From: Macrostomum lignano
Taxonomy: Eukaryota
Direction: 5' to 3'
Length of the DNA: 64,000 bases
Assembly (NCBI GenBank): GCA_002269645.1
Contig: NIVC01002286.1
Span: 122,820-186,819 of the forward strand
This document shows, piece after piece, positions 1,148 to 58,251 of the stretch. A model generated the notes under the pieces. The model saw nothing but the letters and a program-made list of their open reading frames with translations. It had not been told where the DNA came from and made no database searches. The number at the start of each line of letters is the position of its first letter. Positions within the stretch are counted from its first letter, which is position 1. The position numbers and the translations under genes are program-made.

Positions 1148-1582
1148 TATCACTGCAGGTAATCATCACTGCAGGTAATTATCCCTGCAGGTAATTATCA
1201 TTGCAGGTAATTATCACTGCAGGTAATTATCACTGCAGGTAATTATCACTGCAGGTAATTATCACTGCAGGTAATTATCACTGCAGGTAATTATCACTGC
1301 AGGTAATTATCACTGCAGGTAATTATCACTGCAGGTAATTATCACTGCAGGTAATTATCACTGCAGGTAATTATCACTGCAGGTAATTATCACTGCAGGT
1401 AATTATCACTGCAGGTAATTATCACTGCAGGTAATTATCACTGCAGGTAATTATCACTGCAGGTAATTATCACTGCAGGTAATTATCACTGCAGGTAATT
1501 ATCACTGCAGGTAATTATCACTGCAGGTAATTATCACTGCAGGTAATTATCACTGCAGGTAATTATCACTGCAGGTAATTAT
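1148..1582. repeat. 16-bp tandem repeat (AATTATCACTGCAGGT), ~27 copies
   Basis: Direct reading; near-perfect copies. Confidence 0.95.
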
Positions 1583-1837
1583 CGCGCAACCGCTTACTTG
1601 AGGGCAAATTTACTAGCCTAAATGTTTTGGGTAAAGGGCGAAAACCGGCTGAGCCTTCCGCCCCAAATACTCTTTCTAGAACCCCCTGTCCCAGCTTGCA
1701 TCCAATTGGCTGGCTCCCGTTGATCGTATAAAACTGTTCATAGAGTCGGGCAGAAACAAAAGAGGGGCTTTGAAAAAAGAGAAAAAAGCTGTTTATTGGA
1801 AATAACAGAAGACACAAATTAGCAAAGCAGAAGACAG

Positions 1838-16800: not shown

Positions 16801-17501
16801 GAGGCGGAGCTGCGCCAGGAGGTGCTCAGTCTGAAGAGCTCGCGGGAGCACGAGGCCTACCGGAGCCAGGACTGCATCTTGGAGACTGTGAGGCCTGATT
16901 TCTCCCATCTTTTATCTCCCAAGTACATTCTCTCATCTTTCAGCAGCATCTCATTTCTTCCATCTCAACATCTCACATCTCTCACACCTCCCATCTCCCT
17001 TCTCCCATTTCTCATCTACAACCTTCTATCTCTCATTATCTCATCTCCCATCATCCCACCACCTATCATCCCATCTCCCATCATCTCATCTCCCATCATC
17101 TCATCTCCCATGATCCCATCTCCCATCATCCCAGTATCCCATCTCTCCTCTCCTTGCAGCTCCCCAATCATGACTAGCCATCCCTTCCGCGCCCCCAGAT
17201 TCGGCTGCAGCGGGCCCAGCTGGATCAGGAGCGCGCCAAATTCCGCGACGAGAGGCGTCGGGAGACCGCCAAGATTGATGTCCGGCGCGAGGACGCGGAC
17301 AGGCGGGAGGAGAAGCTGCGCCTTCGCGAGGAGGAGCTCGAGCATGCGGAGGCCAGGCTCGATGAGGAGCGGCAGTTGTTGGCGCTGAAGGCGGAGCAGC
17401 TGCGGGCCCAGCAGAGTCAGCAGGAGGCAACCCAAAGCGGCGCACTTTCGCTGAAGTCTCGGGCGACTGCGGCAAAACGCAACGGGGAGACGCTGGAGTA
17501 G
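1838..17501 (+). CDS. Lbc-family (ARHGEF18/ARHGEF2/ARHGEF28/AKAP13-like) DH-PH Rho guanine nucleotide exchange factor, ~883 aa in 7 predicted exons
   Basis: Exons with GT-AG borders and compatible phases: 1838-2031 (tentative; upstream exons may exist), 10463-10724, 11394-11789, 12195-12770, 13310-13870, 16528-16887, 17199-17501 (TAG). The DH start SWANAQEKKLLKQCGEKLVRRCNFVYELVSTEINHLRNI resembles the Lbc-family SW...VIYEL.QTE.HH.RTL. Also present: the DH motif VTQRLSKYKTLL, a PH-like exon ending EDRDKWLRLINK, and a C-terminal E/R-rich coiled coil typical of this family. Confidence 0.85.
2566..4663. repeat. 2.1-kb GA-rich polypurine satellite built from 18- and 20-bp variants (GAGAGGAGAGGGAGACAA / GAGAGAGGAGAGGGAGCCA) in RhoGEF intron 1
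   Basis: Direct reading; the long L/S/P and R/E/G ORFs on both strands are repeat artefacts. Confidence 0.95.
5547..6800. repeat. 54-bp minisatellite, ~23 copies, intronic
   Basis: 18-aa periodicity (ADMLRSKLNKGCIDLAES) in ORF 5550-6851. Confidence 0.95.
7232..8037. repeat. 16/32-bp composite minisatellite (CACACAGTGTCTGACC / CAGAATGAATCTGACC), intronic
   Basis: Direct reading. Confidence 0.9.
8775..9180. repeat. 24-bp minisatellite (CATGAACTCACTCAGTGACTCATT), ~17 copies
   Basis: Direct reading; 8-aa periodic ORFs on both strands. Confidence 0.95.
9797..10371. repeat. 11-bp tandem repeat (TATCCGCTCAC) upstream of RhoGEF exon 2
   Basis: Direct reading. Confidence 0.9.
10767..11330. repeat. 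11/22-bp tandem repeat (CTATCCGCTCT/CCATCCGCTCT) in RhoGEF intron 2
   Basis: Direct reading; same ATCCGCTC core as the 9797-10371 array. Confidence 0.9.
11846..12110. repeat. 10-bp degenerate tandem repeat (TTGAGTCGAT/TTGAGTTGGT) in RhoGEF intron 3
   Basis: Direct reading. Confidence 0.85.
12855..13237. repeat. 20-bp tandem repeat (TGATTCCTGGTTGATCCCGG) in RhoGEF intron 4
   Basis: Direct reading. Confidence 0.85.
13884..14680. repeat. 17-bp tandem repeat (CAGCACTCCTCTCTTCT, ~32 copies) followed by a CT-only tract, RhoGEF intron 5
   Basis: Direct reading; begins about 13 nt after the GTGAGC donor at 13871. Confidence 0.95.
15659..15942. mobile_element. Old hAT-type MITE
   Basis: TIRs CAGGGGTTGGCAAACTC / GAGTTTGCTGACCCCTG. 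The 8-bp flanks TGCTAAGC and TACTAAAG match at only 5/8 (decayed TSD). GA-rich interior, no ORF. Confidence 0.6.
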
Positions 17502-17561
17502 GGATGTGTGCGGTTTGGGATCCCAGTGCCGCACATTAACTAGTTGGATTTCCTTTGTATT

Positions 17562-18190
17562 GAGATGGTTGGGTTTGGTAGGCGCCAAGATGGTCTGGGA
17601 AGCGCCAAGATGGTTTGGTAGGCGCCAAGATGGTCTGGGAAGCGCCAAGATGGTTTGGTAGGCGCCAAGATGGTTTGGTAGGCGCCAAGATGGTTTGGTA
17701 GGCGCCAAGATGGTTTGGTAGGCGCCAAGATGGTTTGGTAGGCGCCAAGATGGTTTGGTAGGCGCCAAGATGGTTTGGTAGGCGCCAAGATGGTTTGATA
17801 GGCGCCAAGATGGTTTGGTAGGCGCCAAGATGGTTTGGTAGGCGCCAAGATGGTTTGATAGGCGCCAAGATGGTTTGGTAGGCGCCAAGATGGTCTGGGA
17901 AGCGCCAAGATGGTTTGGTAGGCGCCAAGATGGTTTGGTAGGCGCCAAGATGGTTTGGTAGGCGCCAAGATGGTTTGGTAGGCGCCAAGATGGTTTGGTA
18001 GGCGCCAAGATGGTTTGGTAGGCGCCAAGATGGTTTGGTAGGCGCCAAGATGGTTTGATAGGCGCCAAGATGGTTTGGTAGGCGCCAAGATGGTTTGGTA
18101 GGCGCCAAGATGGTTTGATAGGCGCCAAGATGGTTTGGTAGGCGCCAAGATGGTTTGGTAGGCGCCAAGATGGTTTGGTAGGCGCCAAGA
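17562..18190. repeat. 20-bp tandem repeat (GGCGCCAAGATGGTTTGGTA), ~31 copies, just downstream of the RhoGEF stop
   Basis: Direct reading. Confidence 0.95.
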
Positions 18191-19836
18191 TAAACGCGGT
18201 ACTGGCTGGTTGGTCCCGTCTTTCCTTCAACTTTCTGATCCACAAACGAAATTGAATTGCCCAGTTTTCTCACAGCTACACTGATTTTCATCGATTCAAC
18301 TGATGCATAAATAAGCAATTGAATATTTTGTTATAATCTGAAGTACGTTTATTCATTTTAAGCATAATTTTCCCTGTATACTTACTGACCGACAACGCGG
18401 AGTAGTGGGTTACGAGAGTGTACACTAAATGTCGCGGTCTTCAGTGAATTTTATATATTGGCTGCACTTTTTCCGGAATTAAAAAATACTGTCGTTTCCC
18501 GCGACTTGCTCATCGGCCAACCGCTGTCGCTATAGATAGTCTTTATTGCTATCCGATTTGTGCTGCTGTGCCATTGTCGTCCCATGAGTTCTGGAGGACA
18601 GAGAGCTGATCATCATTCGACTTGCATAAAAATGCTTAATTCTGGAGTTATAAAAAAATAATTTTTAACGCGCACTGCATGGTGATTCGAGAGTTTTTTC
18701 CATCATAAAAGTGCTGTGCTTTGAATGCAACTTTCGCGATTAGTCGGTCTGAAAGTTCAATATTTGCAATACATGTACATATGTATGTGCATGGGCGCCA
18801 TATCTGACATTCAGAACTTTCCTAGATAACAAAAGCTCTTTGTTTATCTTCTCTTGCGTGACACGTCCGGTCGTAATGTTTTTGTTATAAATGGTTTGGG
18901 AAAATTTTCGGTTTTATCTGTCTTTTATTCGAATATTTCCCGGATATCACAATTCAGCTTCAATATTTTTCAGTTGCGCTATTTTGTCCCAATTTTTTTG
19001 TTTTGAGTGCATGCCTCATATGCAATATCAGATCTCAACTCTCTGACTGGCTATAGCTATAGTAATGACAACATTTACATTTACTATACATGAATCTGGG
19101 ACCATCTAAAAAGTAAAAGAAATACACGATGTTTCCTGGAAATTATCGAAGGCTTACGCTTTCCGAACAATTAACATACAGTAGGTTACTAAAAAAGGTT
19201 TAGAAAGGTTTGTTGTTTATTAATTTTTCTTTAGAAACATCAAAGCAGTCATGCATGTAATAACTACATGACAGGCAACTTGCATTGTGTTTCGCCCCGA
19301 AATGTGATTGCTAAACCGTAACACCGGTCTAACGCGGCGCTCTGCTGTACCAGTGTCCCAGAGGCTCGATTCCGAGTGTAGTCACCAAGGACCGTAACTT
19401 CTAGTGGTCCTTCGAAGTCACATTAATTATCTGAGGCTAAATTAGAATCTCGGCTTGGGTCTGCTCGTGTGTACATGCCTAAACGATAAGCCAGCAGGGC
19501 CTGCTATATGCAGCCTATTTTAGAATTGAGCAGCAAAGAGGAACTGTACTGTACGTAGTTGATCGAGATGGCTAAGGGCTGCGCCACCACGGGGGTATAA
19601 TTAAAATGGCATGTTAAGTCTAGCAGCCACATATGCCCATGCAAGCTAGCACAATTGCAAACATAAGATAAATCAATTCACTGTATTCTACGAGCGTTTG
19701 AATGAGTGCATGATTTGCCAGCCTTTTAACATGCATTATATTTTTACAAAGTGAATGTGCATGTACCAGTAACAGCAGTGTGGGCACCTACATATGTTCA
19801 GGTATACATATTAGGGGAGGGACAGAGTCTGACTCC

Positions 19837-20133
19837 ACTACGTAGGACGCAGATTGTTGTTGATTTTCAGATGTTTTGACGCAAAAAACGCAAATTATAC
19901 TACTATCTGAAAAATGAAGTAAGTAGTATACAAAAACGCTATCCTAAGCGTGATATGGCAATATGTAGTCGTCTCGTAATAATCCATGTGCTCATATTAA
20001 TTCCATGTACATTAATCCCTATCTATCTCAAATTGGATATGTACATTAATTCCATGTACATTAATCCCTATCCCAAATTGTCTATCCCCAATTCTATATG
20101 TACACTCACATTAATCTACAGTGTCATCCCCAG
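19837..20133 (+). repeat. Left terminal inverted repeat (297 bp core) of the pPolB element
   Basis: Reverse complement of 33384-33682; both 19955-20263 (+) and 33320-33562 (-) translate as MAICSRLVIIHVLILIPCTLIPIYLK. Confidence 0.95.
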
Positions 20134-21239
20134 CGTGCGCGCACCAAAATTACAACTCGAAACCCTACTACATGTACAATCTCATCCAAATGAGTCAACT
20201 AATTGTATAGCTCACAACGTAAATGTATATTTCCAATGTACATTCTCAGACAGATTTGAATAATACTGGTCGGAGTCTATATGTACATCGATAGCCTCTA
20301 TACTCATATCCGCTACATACCCCAAAAATTAGGTTATGTACATTTTCACCCTCGGAGACTGTAGGTTTGAATATGTTGATAATTTATTCGAAATCACTTA
20401 TAAAATACACATACTTTCATATAGAGGTGGGCCTGTACAAACTCTCGCCAAGCGATGGGGTGGAGGTTGCGTCATCCAAGCCTCTCCCCAAGTCAGACCC
20501 CCAAATGCAGGACTGTGTTAAAGCAGTGCTTTTTATTTCTATATTGACAGTGTGGATGATACAAGACCTTTAATTGGTAATTATCAACTGCTACTGCTTT
20601 ACGGTATATCCTCACCCCTCGAAGCCCCTATACTGAATGTTGAATCACCCTTTAACTCGGACCATAGTCAAATTCAACCCTGTTCGAAAACAGCCACCCC
20701 TCCGATGTTTACCAGACACAGCGCAGACCCCATAACAAATCGAGCTAAATTTTAACACTCGCCCCTGTTCTCTCTGCCCCCCCCCTTCTAAATTCCAAGG
20801 AATTTCGACCCTCTCTCCATTTTCAGTGTACAGACAGATCTTTCCACAGCACAGACCCTATATTAAACTTCAAAACCCCTCTTCTCCGATTACGTCATCC
20901 ATGCCGCCCCAGATAGCAAGAAACCAACTTTTAATGCACACATCAACCCCACGAATCTGAACAAATCCGAGTCTGCCAACCTCTACCTGCATTGACAAAC
21001 CCCAGCTGCATTTGTAAATGTACACAGCCTATGAATCAGTGTCTCCACCGCATGCAATTCTGATTTACTTGATTCTAAACTTTGTAAATTGTATAAGTCA
21101 CCCTTGCGTTATACTAGAAGTAGTGAAGTCCACATATTTAAATACGTGAGGCTATTCAATTCTGCCTCTCCGCCTCCCCTACCTTCTCACTTCAAGCTTT
21201 CAGACTTGGTCTTTGAGACGGTCGGTTTAATCTGTTAGA

Positions 21240-21960
21240 AGCAGGAATGAATCATGCACTGACCTCTCCATACAAAGTAAAGTTTGAATTTCAAACAAGA
21301 AATTTGGTTATTTGGAAAGCTAAATGACTAGAAATGTGCATTTTTTCATTAAAATACAATTTTTCACAATTTTTATGCATTTTTACGTTAAAATGCAGAC
21401 TTTGTTGATAAAAATCACTAGTTTCATCACTAGAAACCATACTTTCAACAGCTAATTTGTCCAAATGGCGCTTTCAACTTGACTTTAGACAGCTTTTAAG
21501 CAGGAATGAACCCCACACAATCATCCACAAGCCAGCCCAAAATCATCCAAAGACATGGCTATTGAAGCCTAAATTGCTAGAAATGAGCATTTTTCATAAG
21601 AAAATACAATTTTTCACCATTTTTTCTGCATTTTTACGTTAAAATGCAGACTTTATTGATCAAAATCAGTAGTTTCATCGCTGGAAACCATAATTTCAAC
21701 AGCTAATGTGTCCAATGTCGTTTTCAACTTGACCTTAGACAGCTTCGAAGCAGGAACGAATCGCACACAAACATCCACAAGCCAGCCCAGAATCAACCAA
21801 AGACGGCTATTGAAGCCTAAACTGCTATAGAAATGAGCATTTTTTCATAAGAAAATACAATTTTTCACAGTTTTTACTCTTTTTAACGTTAAAATGCAGA
21901 CTTATTGGACAAAATCAATCACTTCATAAGCAGAAACCATAATTTTTACAACTTAATCGT
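21240..21960. repeat. Degenerate ~250-bp tandem triplication inside the left arm of the element
   Basis: GCAGGAA(T/C)GAA recurs at 21241, 21500 and 21750; AAATGCAGACTT recurs with the same spacing. Confidence 0.8.
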
Positions 21961-22731
21961 CAAACTGCTGTTTCATCATTCAAATGTGTGTATTTGGTAC
22001 CCATCAAGAAGTCAGGGAAGGGATTATTCTATTGGGTAAAAACGTACAGTTTGGTATAAAACTAGCTATAATAATTTTAACATATACAGTCGGTGAAGCG
22101 GCCGGTTGATTTCAATTGACATTAAACTGTCTCCCACACCTCTCTCTCCTTCTACACCCACTGAGAAAAGTGGCTTATGAGGCAATCAGTTTGACAAGTT
22201 TACTATATACTGAAATTGGCAAAACACCCAACACCCAAGGCTTTGCACACAAGCCGTATTTTCCCTGATTATTAAATCGATACAGCTACAGCGATTTTTG
22301 ACAACCATTTTCTCACAGAGGCAGATAGGCACTGAATAACTGCAGAAGTTCTCTTTCATATTCTTCATCTCCAGTTAGCTATTATAAGTCGCCAAGATAT
22401 TGTCTTCTGAATAAACACCGCTATCTATCCGATTCAAGTCGAAAAGACATGCTGCAAGAGGAAGCGGTCATCTTTATAGTCATCTTTATATAAGAGACTG
22501 TACTCTGTAGCAATTTTCACTCCTGCAAGAGTGCTGGTTGGGTGGATCCGCTCAGATCCAATAAAAACCGCATGAGAAAGGAATTGGTGGGGTAATTTTG
22601 ACCCCAACTTTTCTATACCAAATGTGGAACCGAGTGTACAATTGTACACTAATCTAGAAAATATAGACCCGGGAAAGAAAATCACGCACACTAATTCTCG
22701 TGCCCCTACCCCACCCTCCCTCTTGCGGGGG

Positions 22732-22739
22732 TATATAAA
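22732..22739 (+). promoter_or_regulatory. TATA box (TATATAAAG) upstream of pPolB exon 1
   Basis: Consensus match about 205 nt upstream of ATG 22943; the promoter role is inferred. Confidence 0.55.
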
Positions 22740-22942
22740 GCGAGTGAGAGCTGCTGCAGCCGCATCAGCAGAAACAGCAGCACAGCTAGCAGCAGAAGAA
22801 GCAACAACCGCAGAAGTCACAACAGCAACAGCAAACGGCAGCAGCATCAGAAACCGCAAGCATCTCCAATCACAGCCGCTTCCGCAGCATCAGCAGCATC
22901 AACCACAATCACAGCAGCAGCAGCAGCATCAGCAGCATCACA

Positions 22943-23046
22943 ATGGCATCGAAGCGTTCAGCCGCTGAAGCCGCCATTTCAGCCTTGTGGGGGCAGGCCG
23001 GCCCCTCACAACAGCAGCAGCAGCAGCAACAGCAACAACAGCATCA
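22943..23046 (+). CDS. pPolB exon 1, 5' part (MASKRSAAEAAISALWGQAGPS-polyQ), interrupted by the LINE
   Basis: Removing the LINE and one TSD joins it to 27508-27539 (QPPAAKRGRQL-G), followed by a GTGAGT donor at 27540 whose phase 1 matches the acceptor at 28837. Confidence 0.7.
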
Positions 23047-23116
23047 CTCGTCCTACACTCTGGGGGCCTCTTCGCGGCGGATGAGAGTTCCTAATTTGGA
23101 TACGAACACCCGGAGT
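23047..23116 (+). ncRNA. HDV-like (double pseudoknot) self-cleaving ribozyme at the LINE 5' end
   Basis: P1 CUCGUCC/GGAUGAG; P2 ACUCUGGG/CCCGGAGU; P3 GCC/GGC with L3 UCUUCGC; P1.1 CU/AG; P4 UCC-UAAUUU-GGA; J4/2 UACGAA with the putative catalytic C at 23103. P1 starts exactly at the first base after the TSD. Confidence 0.85.
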
Positions 23117-26100
23117 AACGCGGATCACCATGTTCACCATGATAAGAGAGGGTGGAAGAGATTGGAAGGGTATGCTGTGAAACCCGCTACCAACGCGCAG
23201 GAAGACAGGAGAGGCTGGAGAACTGAGCGGCTTGACAGGGACGGCGATGTGGAACCCAACCCTGGCCCGTGCGCCAGATGTGGAAAAAACATCACTAGGG
23301 GCCAAAACCCGGTCCGCTGCGTCGGCTGCGGTAACGAAGTCCACGGCAGCTGCACAGGCTTGACTAGAGCGGGCCAGAGCAAAGCGAGAGAAGGAAAGAA
23401 GGATTGGAAGTGCGGCGGATGCTCTCAGCAGGAGGATTGGTTGGCGGAAGATGCCGCGGCGGCTGAGGAGAGAAGAAAACGCTGCATCGAGAGGATCGAG
23501 AAGGGTAGCAGATGTGCTAAGCCTGGCTGTGGAGGCAAGCTCAAGGTCACTAAGGTTATTGCGCGGTGCACTAGATGTGACGAACTGTTCCATAACAAGT
23601 GTACTGGAGCCAGCAGAGCTCAAATCGACGGTGAAATTAAAAAAGGCCTTTGGACCTGCCAGATGTGCTCAGACAAGTTGGAAAGAGCCAGAACCGATAA
23701 TATCGCCGTGGATAAGGAAGAGACCAGAAACCCGGCCGGCGAGGGCTGGTCGAGCGCCCGGAGGGAAAACCTGAGGATTCTGCAATGGAACGCCGATGGC
23801 ATTAGAAATAAGAAAGTGGAGCTTGAGCGGTTTCTGAAAGCGCATGACATTGACGTGGCTGTCATTCAGGAATCTAAACTTGACAGCGAGTCGCCAACCC
23901 CCCGCTTCGCCGGCTACACCACCGCCCGGAAGGACAGGGTGGAGATCCGCAGAAGCGATAAGTCTAAAGGGGGAGGCCTGATCACCCTGATCAAGCACAA
24001 TCTTCCTTTCAAGCGCTGGACAGGCTGGAAAGGCACTACCACGGAGGGCTGCCGCGTGATCGTGGACGTTAACAGGAAGGAAAGGTGTGTCATCACTAAT
24101 GTTTACCGCCCCCCTGTGCGCACTGTCGAAGGCAGTGACGACAGGGAGGATGATAGTGTCTGGAGCTGGCTTAAACCAGACAGAAGAGAGCTGATTCTCG
24201 GCGACTTAAACCTACACAGCAGAAGCTGGGGAAGCTGCGACGACCAAGGAAGAGACAGCAGAAGGGAGGCTTTAGAGCTGGAATCCTGGTGCGAAGAATT
24301 TGACTACAGGATCCTAAACGATGGAGCCGCGACGCGCGTGGATTGGCGTACAGGACGGACCAGCGTCCCGGACATTTCGTTGGCGGCGGGAGAGCTGGCG
24401 GAGCGCTGCGAGTGGAAAACCCTCGAAGGTCTCGGCTCAGACCATCTCCCCATCCTGGTCACCGTGGCTACCAGGAGAGAAATCCGGCAAAAGAAGACCA
24501 AGCTAAACTGGGCGTGGAAGAAAGCGGACTTCTCGGAGTTCCAACGTAATGCGGATGATCTGTTCGAGAAAGTGCCAAGGACCGAGTTAGCAGCCGAGGT
24601 CAGAGGGCTGAGTGCAGCCATGGTCAAGGCGGCGGAGTTGAGCATCCCTAAGAAGAAAGTGGGAGGAAAGTACAAACCTTTTTGGGACGATGAACTGAGC
24701 GCTCTGCAGAATGAGCGGGACAACTGCTCTAGAAGCACGACTGTCAGCAGAGAAAAGTGGTTGGAGGTAAACAGGAACCTGGAGGCTAAAATCAGGGAAA
24801 AGAAGCGGTCCTTCTGGGCCGAACATGTGGAAAGCCTTAAAGAAAACGACGACGGGAAGAAGACCTGGAGTACCATCAAATCACTGTACTCAGCTAGAGA
24901 TACTGCCCCGCCTAACCAAATTTTAGCTGACAAAGGGCGCGAAGCCAGATCGGATGTCGAAAAGGCGGCTGTGTTCGTTAGCATGTACGCTGATAACAGT
25001 AAGGTCAAGATCGGGAAGGCGGACCGGGTCAAGCGGGTGGAGGTGGCTAGAAGACTAAGAGCCTATAACGCGCACCAGGAGTTTGACACACCATTCGTTA
25101 TGGATGAGATGGATGATGCGCTCAAGCTGATGGACCCAACGAAGAAGGGGGGAGTTGACGGAGTTGAAGTTCGGCTTCTTAAAAACCTCTCCGTAGTAGG
25201 CCGTCAGAGATGGTTGGATGTTTTCAACAGAAGCTGGGCAGATGAGCTATGCCCTGGGTCCTGGAAGAAAGCGGAAATCGTTCCGTTGCTTAAACCCGGC
25301 AAAGACCCAGCGGCGAAGGAATCCTACAGACCGGTCAGCCTAACTCCGGTCTGCGCCAAGCTCATGGAAAGGATGGTCGTGAACAGGTTGTACTTCTGGC
25401 TGGAGGAGAATAACATCATTCAGCCCTGGCAAGCCGGCTTCCAGAGGGGCAGAAGCACCGAGGAACAGGTGCTCAGGCTTGTGCAGCACATTCAAGACGG
25501 CTGGGAGAGCAAAAAACCAAAAAAAACTCTGGCCGTGACATTGGACTGTTCGAAAGCGTTCGAAAAAGTTTGGAGAGTGAAACTCCTTGAGAGAATGATG
25601 GAGGAGGGCGTCCCAGCCAGGATCACAAGGTGGTTTGCTAGCTTCTTGGAAGGAAGACAAGCCAGAGTCCGTGCCGGGGACGGCAACAGCAAATACAGAC
25701 GCCTCCAGGAAGGTCTCCCGCAGGGCGCGGTGAGCTCCCCTGTTCTGTTCCTCCTGTATGTAAATGGTTGGACCGGTGTGAAAGAGGAGGGAGTGCAGTA
25801 CGGCGGCTTCGCGGATGACCTGGCAGTCTGGTGCAGCGGAGATGACACCGAGGAGATCACTAAACGCCTGCAGCGTGCGCTGGATAAGATCGGCGGCTGG
25901 GCGGATGGCCTTAAAATTGAGCTGAACCCAGGGAAGTGCGAATCCTGCCTCTTCAGCAAGTCCACGAAAGACAAAAATCGCCACCCGAAGCTCTGGATTA
26001 GCGGAAAGGAGATCGCGGGGAAAGTCTCGCTTAAGTACCTGGGAGTGCGCATCGACCGTGGCCTCAATTTCCAGGAACACACGGACGCCGTGGTCGATAA

Positions 26101-27466
26101 AATGCGCCGAAGAAGCAGGGTTCTCAAGGCGGTGGCCAATACGGAATGGGGCTGGCAGGCGGAGAGTCTAAAGAAAGTTTACTCTGCGATCGTTGAGAGC
26201 TGCGTTTGGTACGCCGCGGCAGCTTGGTTACCCTGGATTTCGAAGACCAACGTTCAAAAGATCGAGCGGGCGCAGCGTGAAGCCCTCCGTCTGACAGCTG
26301 GGCTCGTGAAATCAACGCCGGTGGAAGCGGTTCACCTGGAAACAGGAATCCCGCCCATTTCCGAAAAAGCGATCCTGCGCTGCGTTCTCGAATGGGAGAA
26401 AGCTGAGCGCGAGCCCCGACCCAGCCTCAAGCGTGATATGTGCGACATCGTCCTCCCCAGGAGACTTAAGGCAAACAAGGGATGGCGCGAGCAAGCGAGG
26501 TATGAAAGTAGATCCATCAGCGAGGCTCCCAGGGAGGAATTCATGAGGAAAAGGCACCCCCCTTGGAGAAGGCTCAGACTCGACGGGGTCGGGTTGTTTC
26601 CCGACCTATCCGGCAATGCCAAGAAGGGTGATGAAGACATCGCAGAAGACGCGGCTCGAACCATCCAGGAAAGAGGTCAGGTCGAGTTGAAAATCTTCAC
26701 GGACGGCTCTGTAGACGGAAACGGAAGGAACGGAGGAGCGGCCTGTGTCGCCTGGTGCGATGAACGTGAGTACTGCAAGTTAGCTGCAGCGGGCGAATTC
26801 TGTAGCTCCCTTATCGCGGAAAGAACGGCTTTGCACCTGGCGCTAGATCTTGTGGAAGAGCTGAGGCCAAGTAGCGCTCTCATCCTGACTGACAGCAAGT
26901 CCGCCGTCTTGGCCACCGGTACCGAGAGGGTCACTGGAAACAGGAGCCAATTTAACTTGATTGACAGGCTCAGGAGGACGAGTGTATGGTGCAGCATCAC
27001 CCTCCAGTGGATCCCAGGCCACTGCAGCATCGCTGGAAATGAGAGGGCCGACGAGCTGGCAAAGCAGGCAGCGCTCTTGCCCCAAGGGCAGACGGCCGTT
27101 GAGTTTGAGGCGTTACGCAGACACCTGAAGCACCGGTGGAGGCCCTGCATAAATGACCCCCGTCTGCGCTCGGTGTACGGTGGTGTGATTGAACGCGCGG
27201 AATGTGGCAGGAAAGTTGCTTCCATCTTAGCCCAGCTCAGGTCTGGTCACTGCAGACTCACTAAGTACTGGAGGCAGAAGATTGGTCTGGAAGCAGAAGG
27301 CGTTTGCGAGGACTGCGGTGACATAGAAGATAAAGACCACTGGTGGTCGTGCGCGCGTTGGGACGGGCTTCGGCAGCACACTGGTCTGCGTGAACTGAAG
27401 GATCTGCGCGAGGAGAACATGGTGATAGGGTTCTTGAGGGTGGCCCACCCGCAGTGGATCACCTGA
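23081..27466 (+). CDS. LINE polyprotein (1461 aa): 2A peptide - 2x PHD finger - AP endonuclease - reverse transcriptase - RNase H - C-terminal CCHC-like motif
   Basis: 2A motif DGDVEPNPGP. Two C4HC3-like fingers. APE motifs LQWNADGI, IQESKL, GDLNLH, SDHLP. RT motifs YRPVSLT, QAGF, PQGAVSSPVLF, FADD, YLGV. RNase H motifs FTDGS, TDSKS, WIPGH...GNERADELAK. No stops or frameshifts. Confidence 0.92.
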   Translation: MRVPNLDTNTRSNADHHVHHDKRGWKRLEGYAVKPATNAQEDRRGWRTERLDRDGDVEPNPGPCARCGKNITRGQNPVRCVGCGNEVHGSCTGLTRAGQSKAREGKKDWKCGGCSQQEDWLAEDAAAAEERRKRCIERIEKGSRCAKPGCGGKLKVTKVIARCTRCDELFHNKCTGASRAQIDGEIKKGLWTCQMCSDKLERARTDNIAVDKEETRNPAGEGWSSARRENLRILQWNADGIRNKKVELERFLKAHDIDVAVIQESKLDSESPTPRFAGYTTARKDRVEIRRSDKSKGGGLITLIKHNLPFKRWTGWKGTTTEGCRVIVDVNRKERCVITNVYRPPVRTVEGSDDREDDSVWSWLKPDRRELILGDLNLHSRSWGSCDDQGRDSRREALELESWCEEFDYRILNDGAATRVDWRTGRTSVPDISLAAGELAERCEWKTLEGLGSDHLPILVTVATRREIRQKKTKLNWAWKKADFSEFQRNADDLFEKVPRTELAAEVRGLSAAMVKAAELSIPKKKVGGKYKPFWDDELSALQNERDNCSRSTTVSREKWLEVNRNLEAKIREKKRSFWAEHVESLKENDDGKKTWSTIKSLYSARDTAPPNQILADKGREARSDVEKAAVFVSMYADNSKVKIGKADRVKRVEVARRLRAYNAHQEFDTPFVMDEMDDALKLMDPTKKGGVDGVEVRLLKNLSVVGRQRWLDVFNRSWADELCPGSWKKAEIVPLLKPGKDPAAKESYRPVSLTPVCAKLMERMVVNRLYFWLEENNIIQPWQAGFQRGRSTEEQVLRLVQHIQDGWESKKPKKTLAVTLDCSKAFEKVWRVKLLERMMEEGVPARITRWFASFLEGRQARVRAGDGNSKYRRLQEGLPQGAVSSPVLFLLYVNGWTGVKEEGVQYGGFADDLAVWCSGDDTEEITKRLQRALDKIGGWADGLKIELNPGKCESCLFSKSTKDKNRHPKLWISGKEIAGKVSLKYLGVRIDRGLNFQEHTDAVVDKMRRRSRVLKAVANTEWGWQAESLKKVYSAIVESCVWYAAAAWLPWISKTNVQKIERAQREALRLTAGLVKSTPVEAVHLETGIPPISEKAILRCVLEWEKAEREPRPSLKRDMCDIVLPRRLKANKGWREQARYESRSISEAPREEFMRKRHPPWRRLRLDGVGLFPDLSGNAKKGDEDIAEDAARTIQERGQVELKIFTDGSVDGNGRNGGAACVAWCDEREYCKLAAAGEFCSSLIAERTALHLALDLVEELRPSSALILTDSKSAVLATGTERVTGNRSQFNLIDRLRRTSVWCSITLQWIPGHCSIAGNERADELAKQAALLPQGQTAVEFEALRRHLKHRWRPCINDPRLRSVYGGVIERAECGRKVASILAQLRSGHCRLTKYWRQKIGLEAEGVCEDCGDIEDKDHWWSCARWDGLRQHTGLRELKDLREENMVIGFLRVAHPQWIT

Positions 27467-27507
27467 GAGCTCCGGTCCGAGGCACACACACACACACAAC
27501 AGCATCA

Positions 27508-27539
27508 GCCTCCGGCCGCAAAGAGGGGACGACAGCTAG
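27508..27539 (+). CDS. pPolB exon 1, 3' part (PPAAKRGRQL; basic NLS-like)
   Basis: Continues the exon-1 frame after LINE removal; followed by a consensus AG|GTGAGT donor. Confidence 0.65.
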
Positions 27540-27559
27540 GTGAGTCTTGCAAGTCTGTG

Positions 27560-27995
27560 TAAAAATTTCTTTTTCATCTTTATCTTTTACGAAACTCCAA
27601 ATTCGGGATTATTGAATAATATAGGGCTGTTCTCTGTAAAAACTGCTTTTTCATCTTTGGCATTCATTTGGCTTTCGCAAACTCAAAATAAGGCTTATTG
27701 AAATAATAGGAGGCCCCACTGTAAAACTGCTTTTCACCCTTCGCATTCAGAGTTGCTTTGCAAACTGTAAATTCAGCTTATTGAAATAATAGGACTCTCT
27801 GAAAAACTGCTTTTTATACATTAGCCTCAATTATTTTCATCTTTAGCATTTGCAAAATCTAAAATTAGAAAAATAGGGTTGTATAACTGCGCTTTTCAGC
27901 TTTAGCATTAGTGTGATTTGCAAACTTTTCGCTTGTTGAAATATGGGCTTTCTTTGAAAACCACTGCTGCTTTTCATCTTTAGCATTCATTTTGG
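27560..27995. repeat. Degenerate ~80-bp tandem repeats in pPolB intron 1
   Basis: Recurrent AAAACTGCTTTT..CATCTTT.GCATT and CTTATTGAAATAATAGG blocks, roughly 5-6 units. Confidence 0.65.
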
Positions 27996-28836
27996 GTTAA
28001 AATTTCTGAATTTCCTCTTGACATAGATGTTGAAGTTGGATTTCTCAAATTCAGGCCTGCTGAAATAACAGAGTTTTAGAGAATATCCGCAACAGCAGTA
28101 TAGCCAGATAATGCCTGTAGAGGATAGTCATAAAATTTCAGGGGTTATGTGACTAGAGAAGCAAAAACAGCAATCCTGTGGCGCGCGCGTGACTCAGCGG
28201 GGGGGGGGGGCGGGCAGGCGGCAGTGATAAAATCAACCCCCGATTTTTGGGCATGATGATGTAATCACCGCTGCAATTGTAGGGGTTTTGGCAGCAATAA
28301 AACTTGGCTGCTACAGTGAGGGTTATTAATCAGACAGCTTTAAAAATCCAAAAGCGGCCGCGCGGTATTGTTGCTAGGTGTCAAGGAGGCACAATGGAGG
28401 CACGTGCTGATAGGGGGTTTTCTTAAATTTTACTATGTCTGCTGCGGCAGGATCAGTGTTATCAGGGTCATCAATCAAACATTTTTGACAGCCTAAAATT
28501 CGAAGCGGGGGTCAATCAAACCCACATTTCTTTTGTTGCTACGTGTCGGAACGTGCCGAGTTGGGGTTTTTACAACTCGCCGATCTTTGTTGCTTGGGGT
28601 GGGGCGATAAAATTGCTGCTGCTGCAGGCAATCAATCAAAAATTTTTGACAGTTGTAAAATTCCAAGCGGTCAGAATTTTAGTCACCATGCGCATTTTTA
28701 TTGCAGATTTGGCTCAATTTCAACCCCCGCCCCAGCCCGACACTGTCGAAGGCGATGGTAAGGAGTTGATTTTATTTCATGAGTCATTCACCTGCCGCCT
28801 CTCGCAATTCTAATTTCAAAACCCTCCATTTTTCAG

Positions 28837-31800
28837 GCTTCATTGCGCGTCTTGGCGGGGCGAAAGCCCTGCCTAAGTTTAGAGCCAAGGGCTACGAATA
28901 TGAAGTAGCATTAGCAAATACTACCGATGTTCGCTCAACGATTGCAGAGGTTATTTCTGTACTCTGTGCGGACCTACACGCAAACGATTTTGTTTCGGCC
29001 AAACTAACGGCGGATAACATGCTGCTCACGGTTAATGTCCCGCCGGTCCGCGCCGCCCGCTTCACTGCAGATCTTGTTTTCAAGCACATCAACAAGGTTC
29101 TGCAGTCGGACTCTAGTGTCTTGGGCAACAACTTTAAATTGTTTTTGCTCAAGGCCTGGGTCCCGCGGGGCGGCTGCGGCAGCCTAGATGCAGCGGAGCG
29201 CCATATTCAGGCACGCCATGCTATGGGCTATAATTATGCTGTCATCGCCAACCGCGACAAGCGGTGCCTCATTCGGGCGCTGATTGTCGCCAAGGCCTTT
29301 GCCGACCTGGAGGCCAAGGCCATTACTAAGCAAACTTGGCGGACCATCAAGGCCGACTCCCCAATGCAGAAGAAGCTGACTGGGGAGTTACAAATTGCAG
29401 CCAAATTGTATTCGGTGAGTAAAAAATGTTCTTGCACATTTTAATTTGCATTTTTATTAATATACAAATGTTTTAGTCTTTATCAACCATTGCACAGGCC
29501 GGGCCTTTCGGGGTTGATGTGCTCCCCCAACTGCTCGCGGCCCTGAACGCCCAGTCGCCCGGCCGGGATTTCGGCGTCCGGGTATACAGTGCCGAGGAGG
29601 GCAATACATGTGTGTATGCCCTGCCCGGCCGCGAAGTGCTGAATCTGCACCTAATTGGAGAGCACTTTAACACGGTGTGCAAGGTGCCGCCATTTTTCGG
29701 TGCCCGCCGCTATTGTGACCGCTGCCAGCAACCGTACGACTGTAACTCTGGAAAGCACAAGTGCACCAACACCTGCCCTCAATGTAAAGTGCCCGGCGCC
29801 AATTGCAAGAGCCTTCAGCGTGACTATAAGCGCTGCGCTGATTGTGGCCTCAAGTGCTACAATCAGCAGTGCTTTGAGAACCACCGCCGGAAAAACCGGG
29901 CGGGGCGGTCGCGTTGCGATTCAATCCGCGTCTGCCCCAAATGCGGATATTTGGAGGAGATGAAAGCGGGCCAGAAGGAGCCGGAACACAAGTGCGGGTA
30001 TGTCAAGTGCCCACTGTGTAAACAGTACGACGAGGCCGGCTCACATTTGTGTTTCGTCAAGGCTCCCAAAGTGAAAGCTTCGACTATGCCGTACGTGTTC
30101 TACGATACGGAAACGTACACGGACGAGGAGAAGCAGCATCACGTGCATCTGGTGACTGCCGTCACGTGCTGCGAGACCTGCTCCGGCCGGGCGTTTCCGC
30201 GCGAGACTTGCCGCCTCTGCAATGGCTTGCATAGCGCCGCCAATTGTCTGACTGGCCGCGATCTGGGGGAGGAATTTTCCAATTGCGTCAGCCACTCAGA
30301 CTGCGCCTGCCAAATGGCCGATTTTGTGGCTGTGGGCCCGGCCTCGCTGATTGCGTTTTTCACCTGGCTGAGCACCACATTCCGTGGCGGCGCCATTGTT
30401 GTCGCGCACAACGCCTCAGGCTATGATGCGTTCCTACTGCTTGGCGCTCTGCTCAACGGCCTGGCCAAGAAGCGGCCCCAAGTACTGTTCCAGGGCAGCC
30501 GGCTAATGAGCATGACGGTGGATAAATTGGTATTTAAAGATTCGTTAAATTTTATACCAATCCCGCTTGCGCAATTCCCAAAAGCGCTGGGGCTCGCTGA
30601 CACAAAGCTGGCCAAGGGGACGTTTCCCCACGAGTTCAACAAGCCGGCTAATTGGAACTACGTGGGCCCCTACCCGGCTATTGAATATTATGGCGGCAAA
30701 GCAAACAAGGACTATGACTCAATCTGTGCTTGGCTAGCCTCGCGACAGGGCGAGTTGTTCAACTTTAATCGGGAGTATCTCGATTATTGTTTGAGCGACA
30801 CAGTCCTGCTTCGCGAGGGCTGCATCAAGTACAGGTCGATAATTGGAGACATTTGCGACGGCCTGGAACCGTTTGTTCAGGCCAACACGATTGCCAGTTT
30901 GGCAATGGCCGTTTTCACCACCCGATTTATGGAGCCCAACTCGGTCGGCGTGATTGCCCGGCAGGCCGACCAGCAGTCATTCAAGGCGCGCAAGTGGCTG
31001 ACCTATTTGAATGCCACCGAATTTGGCGGGCGGCTGCGCACCTGCGACTCGACTGACGGCGAGGCTGTCATTCTTGGCCGCAAGGTGGATGGTTTTGATG
31101 AGGCGAGCAACACTGTCTTGCAGTTTCATGGCTGTTTCTACCATGGCTGCGAGCAGTGCATGCCTGATCAGGATGCTGTCCACCCGCTCAAACGGCAGCC
31201 TCTGAGCCACATCCGCCACGAGACTGAGTGGTTCACTCGCGAGTTGGAGCGGCACAATTACAGTGTTCGTGTCATTTGGGAACACGAATACGACACTGTA
31301 CTGGCATCGCAGGCCGATTTTATCGCCGCAACTGCACATCTGCGCGCTCCGCTCAAGATGGAGGATGCTCTCTACGGCGGCCGCGTAGAGTGTTTTATCC
31401 CGCATGCTGTGGCCAGCGAGACTGAGACTCTCAAATATCGGGATGTGGTGAGTAGTGATACTACTAATATAGTAGAATATTTTGCAAAAATACAGTTTAT
31501 GAAAATAATGTTTTATTTCAACTGGCAGGTCTCTCTGTACCCGACGGTGCAGTCAAAGGACCCATACCCGATTGGCCACCCGGTGCAACATCCGACGCCG
31601 CAAGTGCTAGATTCTGACGCGCTGGCTAGTTACTTTGGTATTGCCAAAGTGACTGTGTTGCCGCCGTCAAATTTGCACATTCCGCTGCTGCCATACAGAG
31701 TGCAAAAGAAGCTCTTTTTTGGGCTTTGCCGCACCTGTATGGAGCAGCAGCAGTGCGGCGACGATTGTGACCACTCAGACGAGCAGCGGGCACTGACTGG

Positions 31801-32912
31801 TACCTGGGCACCGCCGGAGCTGAGGAAGGCCTTCCAGTTGGGCTACCGGCTGCAGGCGGTACACGCGCTAGCCTACTGGACAGAGAAGCGGACCGGCCTG
31901 TTCAGTGACTATGTTAGCACCTTCCTCAAGCTGAAGGCCGAATCGAGCGGCTCCCCCGGCATGTCTGATGAAGACAAGGCCGCCTACATTGCCGATTTCT
32001 TTGCAAAGGAGGGCGTCACGCTGGACAAGGTCGAGCCCAACCCAGGACTTCGCTTTGTAGCGAAAATCTTTTTGAATTCGTAAGTAATTATAAATTCTGT
32101 TTTTAAAACGATTTTCTTCTACTAACAGTAGCACTTCTTTTCACAACACACAGGCTCTGGGGCAAATTTTGTCAGCGTGACGACCTGACATCGACAGAAA
32201 TTGTATCCAGCTACGAGGACTGGCTCGCCCGGCTGACCGACCCCAACCTCAAAGTCAAGGCCTGCGAACCGATTGGCAGCGAGTTTATGCTGCTAGAGTA
32301 CCGGCACCGTTACTTTAATCAGCGGCCGTTCCGGTACTCCAATGTGCCAATCGGAGTCTTTACGACCACGCAGGCCCGGCTGCGCCTGTACGAGGCCTTG
32401 GAGGGGCTCGGCGAACGGGCCATTTACTGCGACACTGACTCGTAAGTATTGCATTGATAAATTATTTTAGAATTGAATAGTTGGCATGTGGAAGTAATTA
32501 TCTCTCTCCCCCCACACCCAGGGTCGTTTACCGGCATTCCGAGGGCCAATGGGAGCCGCCCCATGGCACGAGCCTCGGAATGTGGACCGACGAGGTGTCC
32601 GCAGGCAGCCGGATGACCGACTTTGTAAGTGGAGGGCCCAAGCTCTACACTTACATTGTCGAGGATGCGGCCGGTGTCCGGAGTCAGGTCTTGAAATGCA
32701 AGGGCATCCGCCTGACTCCGGAGATTCGGGAACGCAGCGACGAATTGCGCAATGCCCTGCTACACGGCGGCTCCCTGCAGCTGCCGCAGCTTCAGTTTAG
32801 GCGCGACAAGGCGTCTTGCACCATACACACTGTTAGTATGGACAAGACGTTTCAGCGCGTCCTGACGAAGCGCGTGTACGGGGCCGGCAGCAGGCCTTAT
32901 GGCTATAAATAA
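28837..32912 (+). CDS. Protein-primed family B DNA polymerase (pPolB), exons 2-6
   Basis: Exons 28837-29414, 29498-31447, 31529-32079, 32154-32441, 32522-32912 (TAA), all GT-AG and phase-compatible. Splicing restores motif A (YRDVVSLYP), motif B (KIFLNSLWGKF) and motif C (YCDTDS). Exo motifs FYDTET, AHNASGYD, YCLSDTVLL. Also KGTFPHEFN, LYGGRVE, GGPKLY, KCKGI. With exon 1 the CDS totals 3894 nt (1297 aa). Confidence 0.93.
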
Positions 32913-33383
32913 TGTAATCCAATTATAACTGACAATTCAATGTACATTTTGCAATATTAAATTAGTAAAATCTATTTATTGTACATAATTTGCATTGTAA
33001 TACTGCTGTATTTATCAGAATCTATTTGCTGTATATATTTCAATGTACATAGAGCATTTTTGCATTGCGTGTGGCGAAATTGCCAATGTAAAAATCTATT
33101 GTACATATTTTGCATGTCAAACCTGTTTAAAATCATTTATGAAGAGAAAATTATTGAAAAACAATGTAAAATTTTCTGTTTATTCTATTTGCTGGTGATG
33201 GTGTACATGTCTTGATTCCTGTAATATGCTACTGATTAAATGTAAATATATCTTCATTGTAAATACTTATACATGATGTGCGCTACACGGTTAGTTGACT
33301 CATTTGGTAGTAGATGAGATTAGTAATTCTCACCTCTGTGTACATGTAGCATTGTACATGTAATGTTGGTGCGCGCGGGACGT

Positions 33384-33682
33384 CTGGGGATGACACTGTA
33401 GATTAATGTGAGTGTACATATAGAATTGGGGATAGACAATTTGGGATAGGGATTAATGGACATGGAATTAATGTACATATCCATTTTGAGATAGATAGGG
33501 ATTAATGTACATGGAATTAATATGAGCACATGGATTATTACGAGACGACTACATATTGCCATATATCACGCTTAGGATAGCGTTTTTGTATACTACTTAC
33601 TTCATTTTTCAGATAGTAGTATAATTTGCGTTTTTTGCGTCAAAACATCTGAAAATCAACAACAATCTGCGTCCTACGTAGT
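33384..33682 (-). repeat. Right terminal inverted repeat (299 bp core) of the pPolB element
   Basis: Reverse complement of 19837-20133. Confidence 0.95.
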
Positions 33683-33726
33683 GACTCCCGTTTTCAATGG
33701 CTTATTGAATGTCCAAAGTTGTAGTA

Positions 33727-33950
33727 CACCTTTTCACGTTCAATTTTGAACAAAGTCCAGTTCTAAAAAAACTAGCGGAAATTCAATTCAGACAATTCAG
33801 ACTGGGGCAACAAACCCCAGTTCAAAACATTCTGCTACGGAAGCGAGGTTTAGCCATAGACAAAATTGTCCCCAGTCGGAATTGTCTGAATTGAATTTCC
33901 GCTAGTTTTTTTAGAACTGGACTTTGTTCAAAATTGAACGTGAAAAGGTG
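33727..33950. mobile_element. 224-bp MITE with ~80-bp TIRs and TA TSD (Tc1/mariner-type signature)
   Basis: TA|CACCTTTTCACGTTCAATTTTGAACAAAGTCCAGTTC ... GAACTGGACTTTGTTCAAAATTGAACGTGAAAAGGTG|TA. Confidence 0.8.
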
Positions 33951-36409
33951 TAGTTTATGGCCAAAACGCCTCCCCTCAGTAGACTTTGCTAAATCCATGT
34001 CTAGGCCTGGCTTAGCTTGATCTGTCGCCTGGCCTTAACTTGTCTATGGCGTCCCGTTTTAATTTGATTGTCCGAACTCCCATTTGCATCTTCAAAAGCG
34101 CCCGATACATGCATACATGTAAGTTTATGTTCTCGGCCCCTGCATATGTTTTAATCCATATACATGCAGTCATCGCTATAACTGTTAATGTATAAATCAT
34201 ATCCTCTAGACTGCATGCATCAACAATTATTACAACAAAAAACAACAAAAGCAAAAAACAACAACAATTATTGAAATCCTTCCCATTCTCGTGTGGCCTT
34301 CAATCCGACCTGGATTGGGCATCGACATGAATTTACATGAGCTACTTACATATATACTACAACTTTGCTTCGTAGTATCCGAGTTTGCTAATTTAGCAAA
34401 TTTCTCTAATTGATATCACTTCGATAAACACTGACAAACCATTTTTAGTATAATATTCAGACCACGCAAAGTCAAGTTAAACGAAGGTTCCTATAGGTAG
34501 GTACATAGTTTTGATTTTTAGTATATTGGATATGGATTTTTCATAGTAGACTATTCGTACGATAGTTCCTCCATATACTATATTAGTAAAAATGTATTCA
34601 CTAAAACAAAAGTTATTACAATTCAATTACATGTAGTAATCCTTGAAGCCAAGCTTGTCTGAAGGTTAGTTTGTTAAACACTAAAGGTTAACTACAGTTT
34701 TCCAAAATAATGATTAATAATTGTAAAATCGTATGCCAAAAATTGTTGCTGAAAAATTGCTGGAGTTTTTTGTCTGGACAGGGGCAGAATATGGGAGCCA
34801 AATATATGCCAGAAATCTCATTAGTTAAAACGCTGAGTTTATTAGAATAATTGTTGTGATAAAATTTAAACGGTAAAACGCATGCAAGTTTAAATAAGCT
34901 ATAATTCAAGGCAATTGCATGGTTGGTCAGGTCAGTGAATAACTATACATAGCACACTGTCGAGTGTCAACAAGCGCGACCTAATTGACTAATTGCTTGG
35001 TAGTCTAAATTTTGAATTCGCTTTTTCCTGGATTTCTTGTTGCTACCCGATTGTATTAATATTATATTCGCATTGTTGCTTTATTAGACTAGGCAGCACC
35101 GCGGCAGTTGGCTTAGTGATATTGGATTTTCTTGTTCAGATGAATTATTTGCCTGTTAGAGTTAAAGCAGCAGCGTCTCTGCAATGTTTGAACTCCCTTA
35201 GCACCTTTTTAACTTCAATATTGTTATTAGTTTTATGCCTAGTAGCAAATTCATATGGTAAGTAACTAGCCCCAGGCTTATTAATTTATTTTCCTTTTTG
35301 ACTTTAGGCTTAACATAGTCTATGTCTATGCCTCATTTTTATAACTATCTTACACATGATTAGAGCAAACTGTTGGTATAAGCAATTTATTGGTATCGAA
35401 TATAGAACATCTAGAGAGGCAAAGGAGGCAACATGCCTATTTAACTGGGAGGGAGGATTGGCAAGTTGCTCAAGAAAGAGGCTATACATGCTTGGGAGAA
35501 AGGGAAGGGGCTGCATGCCTCTAACTAGGGCCTATACAACTGCTATTAGAGAAGAATGCCTTCAAATAAAGAACAGTGATAACTAAGCTATTTTTAGAAC
35601 AAATGTAAGCAAGCAAGCAATACAAGCATGTTGCTTCTGTACCATGTATTTTTGCTTGTATATATAATATTTTCTGGCTTAATAGCATAAGTATTTAAAC
35701 AAACTTTAGTATCAAAATGTTATCTAAAAATAGACAAATAATAATCAATTATACTATATTTTTCTAAAAAAACAATTCCAAAGCCTATACAAGTATAAGT
35801 TTTACAAAAAAATTGTATTCAAATTTACAAGTTTATAAGACAATGTAATAAGGCATAGAGATAGCTACTAAAAGAAGGTAAAGCATATATATTTTATAAA
35901 AAAATTACTACAAAAATTGCTAGGCCTATTGCTTCACTTGGCCTTCCTATACAAAAAATGACTAAATAAAATGAGAACAGATTAATAAATTGTTTTTGTA
36001 CTCAAATACAAATTTTAAACAAAATAAAACAAGAAACTATAAGAACTATAGCTAGCTAGGTAATTATAGCAATAACTTGATTACTTGATTAATGCCTTAT
36101 CAAGAATACTATCTTAATCATATAAAGCTGTTTTAGTAAGGTCATTTCTTTGGTTTGTCTTTTTGCTATAAAGGGTTGGATTGATCTTTTCTACGCTTGG
36201 CTTTAGCTTTGACTTTATCTAGCAAAATAGTACTGTGTTCATTTTTTTCATTGATTGTAGATTAGGACTCTTTATCCTCACATAGTCACTTAGTAACAAT
36301 GATTCTTACCTAGGTTATTCAGCATTTTTCTTAAAGTTGCCACTCAATATTGGCAATGGCTTGCTTGCTTGTTCTGTTTGAATTTGGCATCAAGCAGAGA
36401 GATAGGCTG

Positions 36410-58190: not shown

Positions 58191-58251
58191 CTACTTTAAA
58201 AACTCAAAATCCAACAGGTCAGTTACATATAAGTCAAGAAATTGAACTAGT

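Follow-up and report, generated by a model that had tools for sequence, protein, structure and literature searches.

A 64,000-nt stretch of the Macrostomum lignano genome (assembly GCA_002269645.1, contig NIVC01002286.1, positions 122,820 to 186,819 of the forward strand; hereafter the window) contains a Polinton-like element (19837–33682) with terminal inverted repeats (TIRs), a 6-bp target site duplication (TSD) and a single recognizable gene of its own, coding for a family B DNA polymerase of the protein-primed kind (pPolB) and probably split by six spliceosomal introns. The element is real and multi-copy and is not a one-off deletion product; a second family of elements shares its spliced polymerase. 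No rve integrase gene was found in cis in these elements, nor were capsid, packaging ATPase or protease genes. The most probable explanation, to which a probability of about 70% is given, is that they represent a long-lived Polinton-derived lineage that lost the virion and integrase module, in which the replication module has been kept and insertion is performed by Polinton integrases acting in trans.

Polintons are regarded as endogenous viruses whose replication and integration are largely inferred. The spliced-pPolB elements separate replication from insertion, as their polymerase is under selection and no integrase was found in them. If the explanation is correct, they would provide direct evidence for Polinton-type integration in trans and indicate that a Polinton can persist as a purely intragenomic replicon after loss of the virion. 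Searches demanding a pPolB beside an integrase, or intronless open reading frames (ORFs), would miss such elements, which may therefore be overlooked in other genomes.

Two element families without an integrase gene in cis

The element is delimited by TIRs of 297 and 299 bp that pair with each other (19837–20133 on the + strand, starting ACTACGTA, and 33384–33682 on the − strand; 295 of 297 bases identical, with one 2-nt gap) and by the TSD GACTCC (19831–19836 and 33683–33688), just as an earlier sequence-based description (the initial annotation) had it. A 20-nt TIR motif of this family (family 1) has 162 exact sites in the genome, and the control has none. Among the 33 two-ended copies, located by the terminal motif itself, a perfect TSD of 6 bp is present in 32; two pairs of copies probably represent duplicated loci, and since some loci are doubled in the assembly (e.g., C4072/C2932), all counts given here overstate insertions somewhat. 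The termini are 5'-AC...GT-3' in all 33 copies and also in 30 of 30 ends read separately. A CACTA reading of these ends (CACTAC...) was ruled out, because the TSD measures 6 bp and the base next to the ends is variable.

The layout of the window copy, pPolB with a non-coding arm, occurs in 10 of the 33 two-ended copies, which rules out a simple internal deletion of the window copy alone. Three copies contain four genes, namely pPolB, a divergently oriented PC4-like gene, ORF X and dUTPase. The remaining 20 are palindrome-like, one-arm copies, in which the arm is non-coding (17 copies), carries dUTPase (one) or carries the 3' end of the polymerase (two), with an arm identity of 92–99.96% in the 16 measured. 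The term "pPolB-only" of the initial annotation thus suits the window subtype but not the family, other copies with the same TIRs carrying PC4, dUTPase and a further ORF as well. In bipartite pPolB elements of the bidnavirus kind, a second segment with matching termini carries other functions; here, elements that share the TIRs but not pPolB turned out, where read, to be palindromes of the gene-less, dUTPase-arm or nested-transposon type, and in family 2 the single such element read is a gene-less palindrome. The PC4-like gene of family 1 matches PF02229 (E 6e-6 and 1e-5), and a fold search gave no match at E 0.001, with PC4 structures ranked 3, 4, and 6 (probability 0.98–0.99). ORF X, a low-complexity sequence, has no Pfam family above the cut-off and no Atlas match. 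One pPolB-coding copy with its own TSD (L035) is inserted within a gene-less family-1 palindrome (L036/L037, contig C1485).

Family 2 comprises 215 TIR-motif sites, with ends ACTACTA and TIRs of about 1.2–1.35 kb. All six coding copies in which both ends were read by eye have a 6-bp TSD, and PC4 adjoins pPolB in 8 of 10 stretches. The polymerase exons are 54–74% identical to those of family 1 and the introns, all common to both families, lie at matching codon positions, while synonymous sites between the families are saturated (synonymous divergence, dS, >2.6). In a quick tree the two families form one clade (approximate likelihood ratio support SH-aLRT 100, stem 1.6). Their shared core is the spliced pPolB together with the PC4-like single-stranded DNA-binding gene, the window subtype being without PC4; the divergent PC4/pPolB layout spans elements of about 9–10 kb from TIR to TIR. 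The nearest proteins are gene models of M. lignano, a laboratory flatworm, with up to 94–96% identity, those of other species reaching about 24–40%. A genome-wide search with an exon probe, in which all 132 candidates were scored, revealed no close relative beyond the two families.

Ratios of nonsynonymous to synonymous divergence (dN/dS) indicate purifying selection on the spliced polymerase among copies that are themselves without integrase. They amount to 0.07–0.12 for the large exon of family 1 (36 pairs, dS 0.07–0.29) and to 0.06–0.17 in 14 of 15 pairs of family 2.

Fourteen integrase-, capsid-, ATPase- and protease-like probes gave no tblastn match in 28 stretches of the two families; the probes came from three resident Polintons, two integrases being confirmed by Pfam and the others named by position and motif. 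An integrase match lies within 15 kb of 2 of 96 spliced-pPolB loci, compared with 37 of 60 for the first 60 canonical polymerases, used as a control, and both integrase-adjacent loci are one family-2 insertion in the capsid-like ORF of another Polinton. The Pfam profile Pox_A32 had no match in the genome and was equally blind to the ATPase-like ORFs of complete Polintons, so that this result is uninformative. In the window copy, the left arm (20134–22731) and intron 1 look non-coding. None of their 26 ORFs of at least 50 aa exceeds any Pfam cut-off, in agreement with the previously claimed lack of integrase-, capsid-, ATPase- or adenain-like genes in these parts, and comparison with PHROGs gave a single weak match (E 0.027) to a family of no assigned function. 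Indels in the left arm relative to other copies are mostly frame-breaking, 137 of 165 not being multiples of three. The arm contains a 250-bp tandem repeat (21320–21945) and forms gene-less palindromes elsewhere in the genome. Taken together, none of the three outcomes that the initial annotation had named beforehand as refuting its reading occurred: no copies with integrase or capsid genes and no spliced integrase exons were found, and other TSD-flanked copies are numerous.

Structure of the polymerase gene and of the window copy

The pPolB gene of the window copy is encoded on the + strand and likely consists of seven exons and six introns. Exon 1, split by a nested long interspersed nuclear element (LINE), comprises a 5' part with the ATG, a basic patch, possibly a nuclear localization signal, and a Q-rich tract (22943–23046), and a 3' part ending at a GTGAGT donor (27508–27539). 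It is followed by intron 1 (27540–28706, 1167 nt, with an 83-bp tandem repeat), a probable in-frame micro-exon of 51 nt (28707–28757) and intron 2 (28758–28836, 79 nt). The next exon (28837–29414) specifies a domain resembling terminal protein, together with the Cys half of a vOTU-like protease. Beyond intron 3 (29415–29476, 62 nt), the largest exon (29477–31447) harbors the vOTU His, a Cys-rich region, exonuclease motifs, a VSR-like nuclease insert and the start of polymerase motif A. Motifs A, B, and C are each interrupted by an intron, namely intron 4 (31448–31528, 81 nt), intron 5 (32080–32153, 74 nt) and intron 6 (32442–32521, 80 nt), which are separated by exons running from motif A to motif B (31529–32079) and from motif B to motif C (32154–32441); the last exon (32522–32912) ends at a TAA stop. 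The motifs are intact once spliced, as had been proposed, and the exons 3' of the LINE form 1278 codons with no internal stop. Pfam DNA_pol_B_2 (PF03175) matches the largest exon (29477–31447, E 4e-14) and the following one (31529–32077, E 4e-10).

Five introns had been annotated initially (27540–28836, 29415–29476, 31448–31528, 32080–32153, and 32442–32521). All of them are of the GT..AG type at these coordinates; the micro-exon had been overlooked. Six introns are likely, because this conserved in-frame 51-nt exon splits the former intron 1 into 1167 and 79 nt. The micro-exon has AG/GT borders in 15 of 16 family-1 copies, and a 45-nt counterpart is present at the corresponding position in 10 of 10 copies of family 2. 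Donors are GT in 55 of 56 locatable cases across 13 other copies. The counterpart of intron 6 in copy L065 is skipped, as CT..AC on the opposite strand, in matching contigs from three sequencing runs of three studies; these runs are only guessed to be RNA, and the joints are among the 15 listed of 45. Skipping of intron 6 was not seen in run X13.

The predicted fold of the N-terminal exon (pLDDT, the predicted local distance score, 84) resembles a little-finger/PAD domain with Z 6.0–6.5, below the caution line of 8, and the top-ranked chain is unrelated. Among viral proteins, pPolB of adintovirus and of mavirus rank first (E 3e-3 and 7e-3). Fold and viral matches, each weak alone, agree with the published assignment of such a region as terminal protein (PMC11161782), suggesting a terminal-protein-like domain. 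The Cys and His read as the vOTU pair are both present. The VSR motif, detected by a custom sequence pattern, occurs in both spliced families and in 10 of 17 outside homologs, compared with none of five resident intronless polymerases, and would place the spliced pPolB in the VSR subgroup of pPolB2 (10.1101/2023.08.22.554363).

The terminal-protein exon (28837–29414) is mosaic and far more diverged between copies than the large exon (dS mostly 0.2–0.9 vs. about 0.2). In its codons 14–60, dS is saturated in several copy pairs, and additional fragments of the exon are present in the arm of the four-gene copies L044, L063, and L065. No consistent co-variation of terminal module and terminal-protein allele was seen by eye in eight copies.

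A putative TATA-like box (22732–22738, + strand) precedes the gene, and a comparable box is located 5' of the ATG in copy L067 and in family 2. The nested LINE (23047–27495, + strand), encoding PHD-like, apurinic (AP) endonuclease, reverse transcriptase and RNase H domains, is foreign to the element family; it is flanked by a 12-bp TSD (23035–23046/27496–27507) and missing from copies L035, L045, and L050. Exon 1 is unbroken in L067, and since the LINE splits the coding exon 1 of the window copy, the pPolB gene of the latter is interrupted. The LINE ORF (22943–27466) is in frame with the exon-1 ATG, and the element promoter could thus drive expression of a LINE protein fusion. When the LINE and one copy of its TSD are subtracted, the element is 9385 bp long, the value obtained initially and again on recomputation.

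Outside the element, the window contains short MITE-like inverted-repeat elements (miniature inverted-repeat transposable elements) at 33725–33952 (83-nt arms, 99%) and 57098–57536 (39-nt arms, 95%), and numerous minisatellite arrays with units of about 10–54 bp at 1–18300 and 40600–63300.

Candidate helpers, proposed mode of propagation and alternative explanations

Complete Polintons that could act as helpers are abundant. The genome holds at least 235 distinct positions of Polinton-type integrases, and at least six canonical Polinton families are present (235 integrase and 172 polymerase matches listed). Resident Polintons likewise have 6-bp TSDs, and PC4 is present in one complete resident Polinton as well. 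No published account of Macrostomum Polintons was found in a search of mainly open literature, supplements and Repbase being outside its scope.

Descent of the spliced-pPolB elements from a resident complete Polinton is unsupported, five intronless polymerases giving a best blastp E of 0.05 against the large exon. In four of these five, all resident, an EndoVII motif takes the place of VSR. The only intronless VSR-clade-like polymerase among those read, a relic on contig C234, is decayed, shares 30–46% identity across the two large exons and does not form the sister group. This AT-rich relic (L112–L113, about 57200–59400) lies near protease-like and penton-like remnants.

Two resident Polinton families show further peculiarities. 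A canonical Polinton palindrome with AGTAGTAG ends and the TSD TCTATG is located on contig C592 (L132:6058-9501/L133:7-3452), each arm comprising an integrase and a short ORF similar to the polymerase N-terminus. Polintons of family H (contigs C593, C724, C753, C2693, and C4072; L090–L092 and L099–L108) encode integrase, dUTPase, TBP-like and capsid-like ORFs. One internal deletion of pPolB, leaving about 300 N-terminal codons, accounts for 30 of 39 exact junction matches in this family; the undeleted junction has nine, and a full pPolB of 1414 codons is found on contig C1136 (L109–L110). The deleted copies are about 99.7% identical, which suggests a recent burst of polymerase-less H copies.

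Under the preferred explanation, the retained module consists of the spliced VSR-type pPolB, with terminal protein, vOTU, exonuclease and polymerase parts, usually of a PC4-like protein and sometimes of dUTPase. The host spliceosome would produce the mature pPolB mRNA, and the polymerase would replicate linear molecules by protein-primed strand displacement starting at either terminus. Annealing of the displaced strands via the TIRs could make both ends of each copy match and give rise to palindromic copy-back molecules, and the integrase of the abundant complete Polintons may insert the products in trans with a 6-bp TSD. The window copy would represent the PC4-less subtype, broken later by the LINE.

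The structure of the ends bears on this mechanism. Within the terminal 26 nt, copies differ on average by 7.7 bases (28 variants in 33 copies), compared with 0.2 for opposite ends of the same copy. From ends that match within a copy and vary between copies, and from the occurrence of gene-less palindromes, we infer linear replication by protein-primed strand displacement. Matched ends would be expected, because displaced strands pairing through their TIRs recopy one end from the other, and copy-back replication would give the near-identical arms of palindromes, which a canonical Polinton also makes here. Palindromes and matched ends may thus be regarded as footprints of the proposed linear intermediate. 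Positions 9–40 of the TIR (19845–19876 in the window, and all copy ends) form a mosaic of short modules whose variants assort across copies; column diversity is 0.42 at nt 9–26 vs. 0.05 further inward, and several copies of family 1 share an identical 14-nt module (nt 18–31) with copy L134 of family 2.

For the insertion step, a Polinton integrase in trans is the simplest solution, because the length of the TSD matches and helpers are plentiful. The initial annotation had suggested a satellite of Polintons borrowing their integrase. TSD-flanked copies, the absence of a cis integrase, purifying selection and abundant helpers favor this suggestion, but the end bases of the helpers differ. This difference is the first of several points that weigh against the explanation: six of six canonical resident families with ends read start with AGTAGTA, and both spliced families with ACTAC. 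The likeness of the TIR to that of the best candidate helper was reached by 9 of 1000 shuffles in one of 12 tests and fails correction. RNA support, from runs guessed as RNA, extends to one of the six introns, the last. The integrase searches scored about 150 of 2300–2400 candidates each, so that distant integrases could escape, and reading was incomplete for about 65 of the 96 spliced-pPolB loci and for the majority of TIR sites.

The mismatch of the ends would be accounted for if the elements had arisen by deletion from a complete parent, an intron-containing Polinton or virus that ended in ACTAC, encoded an integrase and is absent from the assembly because it is confined to other strains, is episomal or has died out. 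Losses have already made gene content variable (four-gene, two-gene, one-gene and gene-less forms), and many TIR sites lie outside full reading. Its existence is nevertheless unlikely. Two families with saturated dS would both have had to lose the same modules, none of the 132 candidates scored with the exon probe is a close relative outside these families, and purifying selection continues among copies without integrase. Moreover, the divergent PC4/pPolB layout fills the 9–10-kb elements from TIR to TIR.

The unusual terminal dinucleotide and the VSR motif inside the polymerase could alternatively point to an inserting enzyme other than a Polinton integrase, either another DDE transposase or the VSR-like nuclease domain of the element itself. 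This is improbable, as precise ends with a fixed 6-bp TSD are a Polinton signature (accessible part of PMC8097293) present in resident Polintons, VSR-type pPolB also occurs in described mollusc and marine nematode Polintons (10.1101/2023.08.22.554363), and a lone strand-nicking domain would presumably not readily yield concerted insertion of two ends. Still less likely is a split Polinton, in which the spliced-pPolB elements lend their polymerase to the polymerase-deleted family H and receive integrase and capsid in return: the prevalent pPolB deletion in H, the integrase and capsid-like ORFs kept in the copies read, a family-2 element inserted in one H copy and a weak resemblance of the H TIRs to those of family 1 would fit it, but H has its own undeleted pPolB, which is of the EndoVII type and failed to match its spliced counterpart in blastp up to E 1, the ends of H and of the spliced families differ, and the nested composite represents a single locus that occurs twice.

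Insertion of a virion-less Polinton lineage in trans therefore remains the preferred explanation. A bolder proposal can be advanced only tentatively, the odds being somewhat against it: the elements may constitute a distinct class of nuclear, capsid-less and integrase-less protein-primed replicons, resembling linear plasmids stored in the chromosome, which have resided in the host lineage for long enough to gain six introns and split into two families, use Polinton integrases in trans and are themselves parasitized by palindromes devoid of genes. Conflict with the palindromes would then be recorded in the shuffled modules of the termini and in the mosaic terminal-protein region. Lending of polymerase to polymerase-deleted Polintons, as a split genome, would be a further and much less likely extension of this proposal.

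Comparison with known systems

No published account of an element that is multi-copy, lacks integrase and has a spliced pPolB was found, most subscription papers, supplements and Repbase being outside the scope of the search, and the accessible part of PMC8502044 contained nothing similar. Several partial parallels exist in the accessible parts of other reports: pPolB and TIR loci without integrase in Caenorhabditis elegans (10.1101/2024.01.15.575659), pPolBs without linked Polinton genes in Entamoeba histolytica (PMC3511435), and introners within polinton-like elements of dinoflagellates (PMC12166617). In the latter case introner transposons reside in full-length elements, whereas here the spliceosomal introns are common to two diverged animal families without a virion module.

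Cytoplasmic and mitochondrial linear plasmids and transpovirons are likewise capsid-less linear replicons, and plasmids carry pPolB; the layout of terminal protein, vOTU, exonuclease and palm is shared by the cytoplasmic plasmids (PMC11161782, accessible part). Unlike linear plasmids, the spliced-pPolB elements are nuclear, contain GT-AG introns and are chromosomal with exact 6-bp TSDs. Linear plasmids exist as free linear DNA with 5'-bound terminal protein; the material analyzed here comprised integrated copies and contigs. Transpovirons differ in having a pPolB-helicase fusion and depending on giant viruses.

Deleted and non-autonomous Polintons share the TIRs, the 6-bp TSD and the need for an integrase in trans. 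Gene-less non-autonomous Polintons are known. Deleted Polintons are described remnants of a complete family, whereas the polymerase found here is under selection in two old sister families, for which no complete parent was found.

The closest relatives in organization are Polintons/Mavericks, with which the macrostomid elements share pPolB, TIRs of several hundred bp and the 6-bp TSD. The VSR-type pPolB2 Polintons, known in molluscs and in the marine nematode Trissonchulus (10.1101/2023.08.22.554363), also share the polymerase of terminal protein, vOTU, exonuclease and polymerase parts with a VSR insert. The Polinton core genes listed in reviews include both pPolB and integrase (PMC5718144 and PMC6431247, accessible parts), and the Mavericks of vertebrates are reported to be free of introns, to end in AG or AGT and to have 6-bp TSDs (PMC8097293). 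By contrast, the macrostomid elements are only about 9–10 kb long, have six probable spliceosomal introns, no integrase, capsid, ATPase or protease found, and 5'-AC...GT-3' (ACTAC) instead of 5'-AG...CT-3' termini. Overall, they work like the replication half of a Polinton and depart from Polintons in integrase, virion genes, terminal dinucleotide and the presence of introns.

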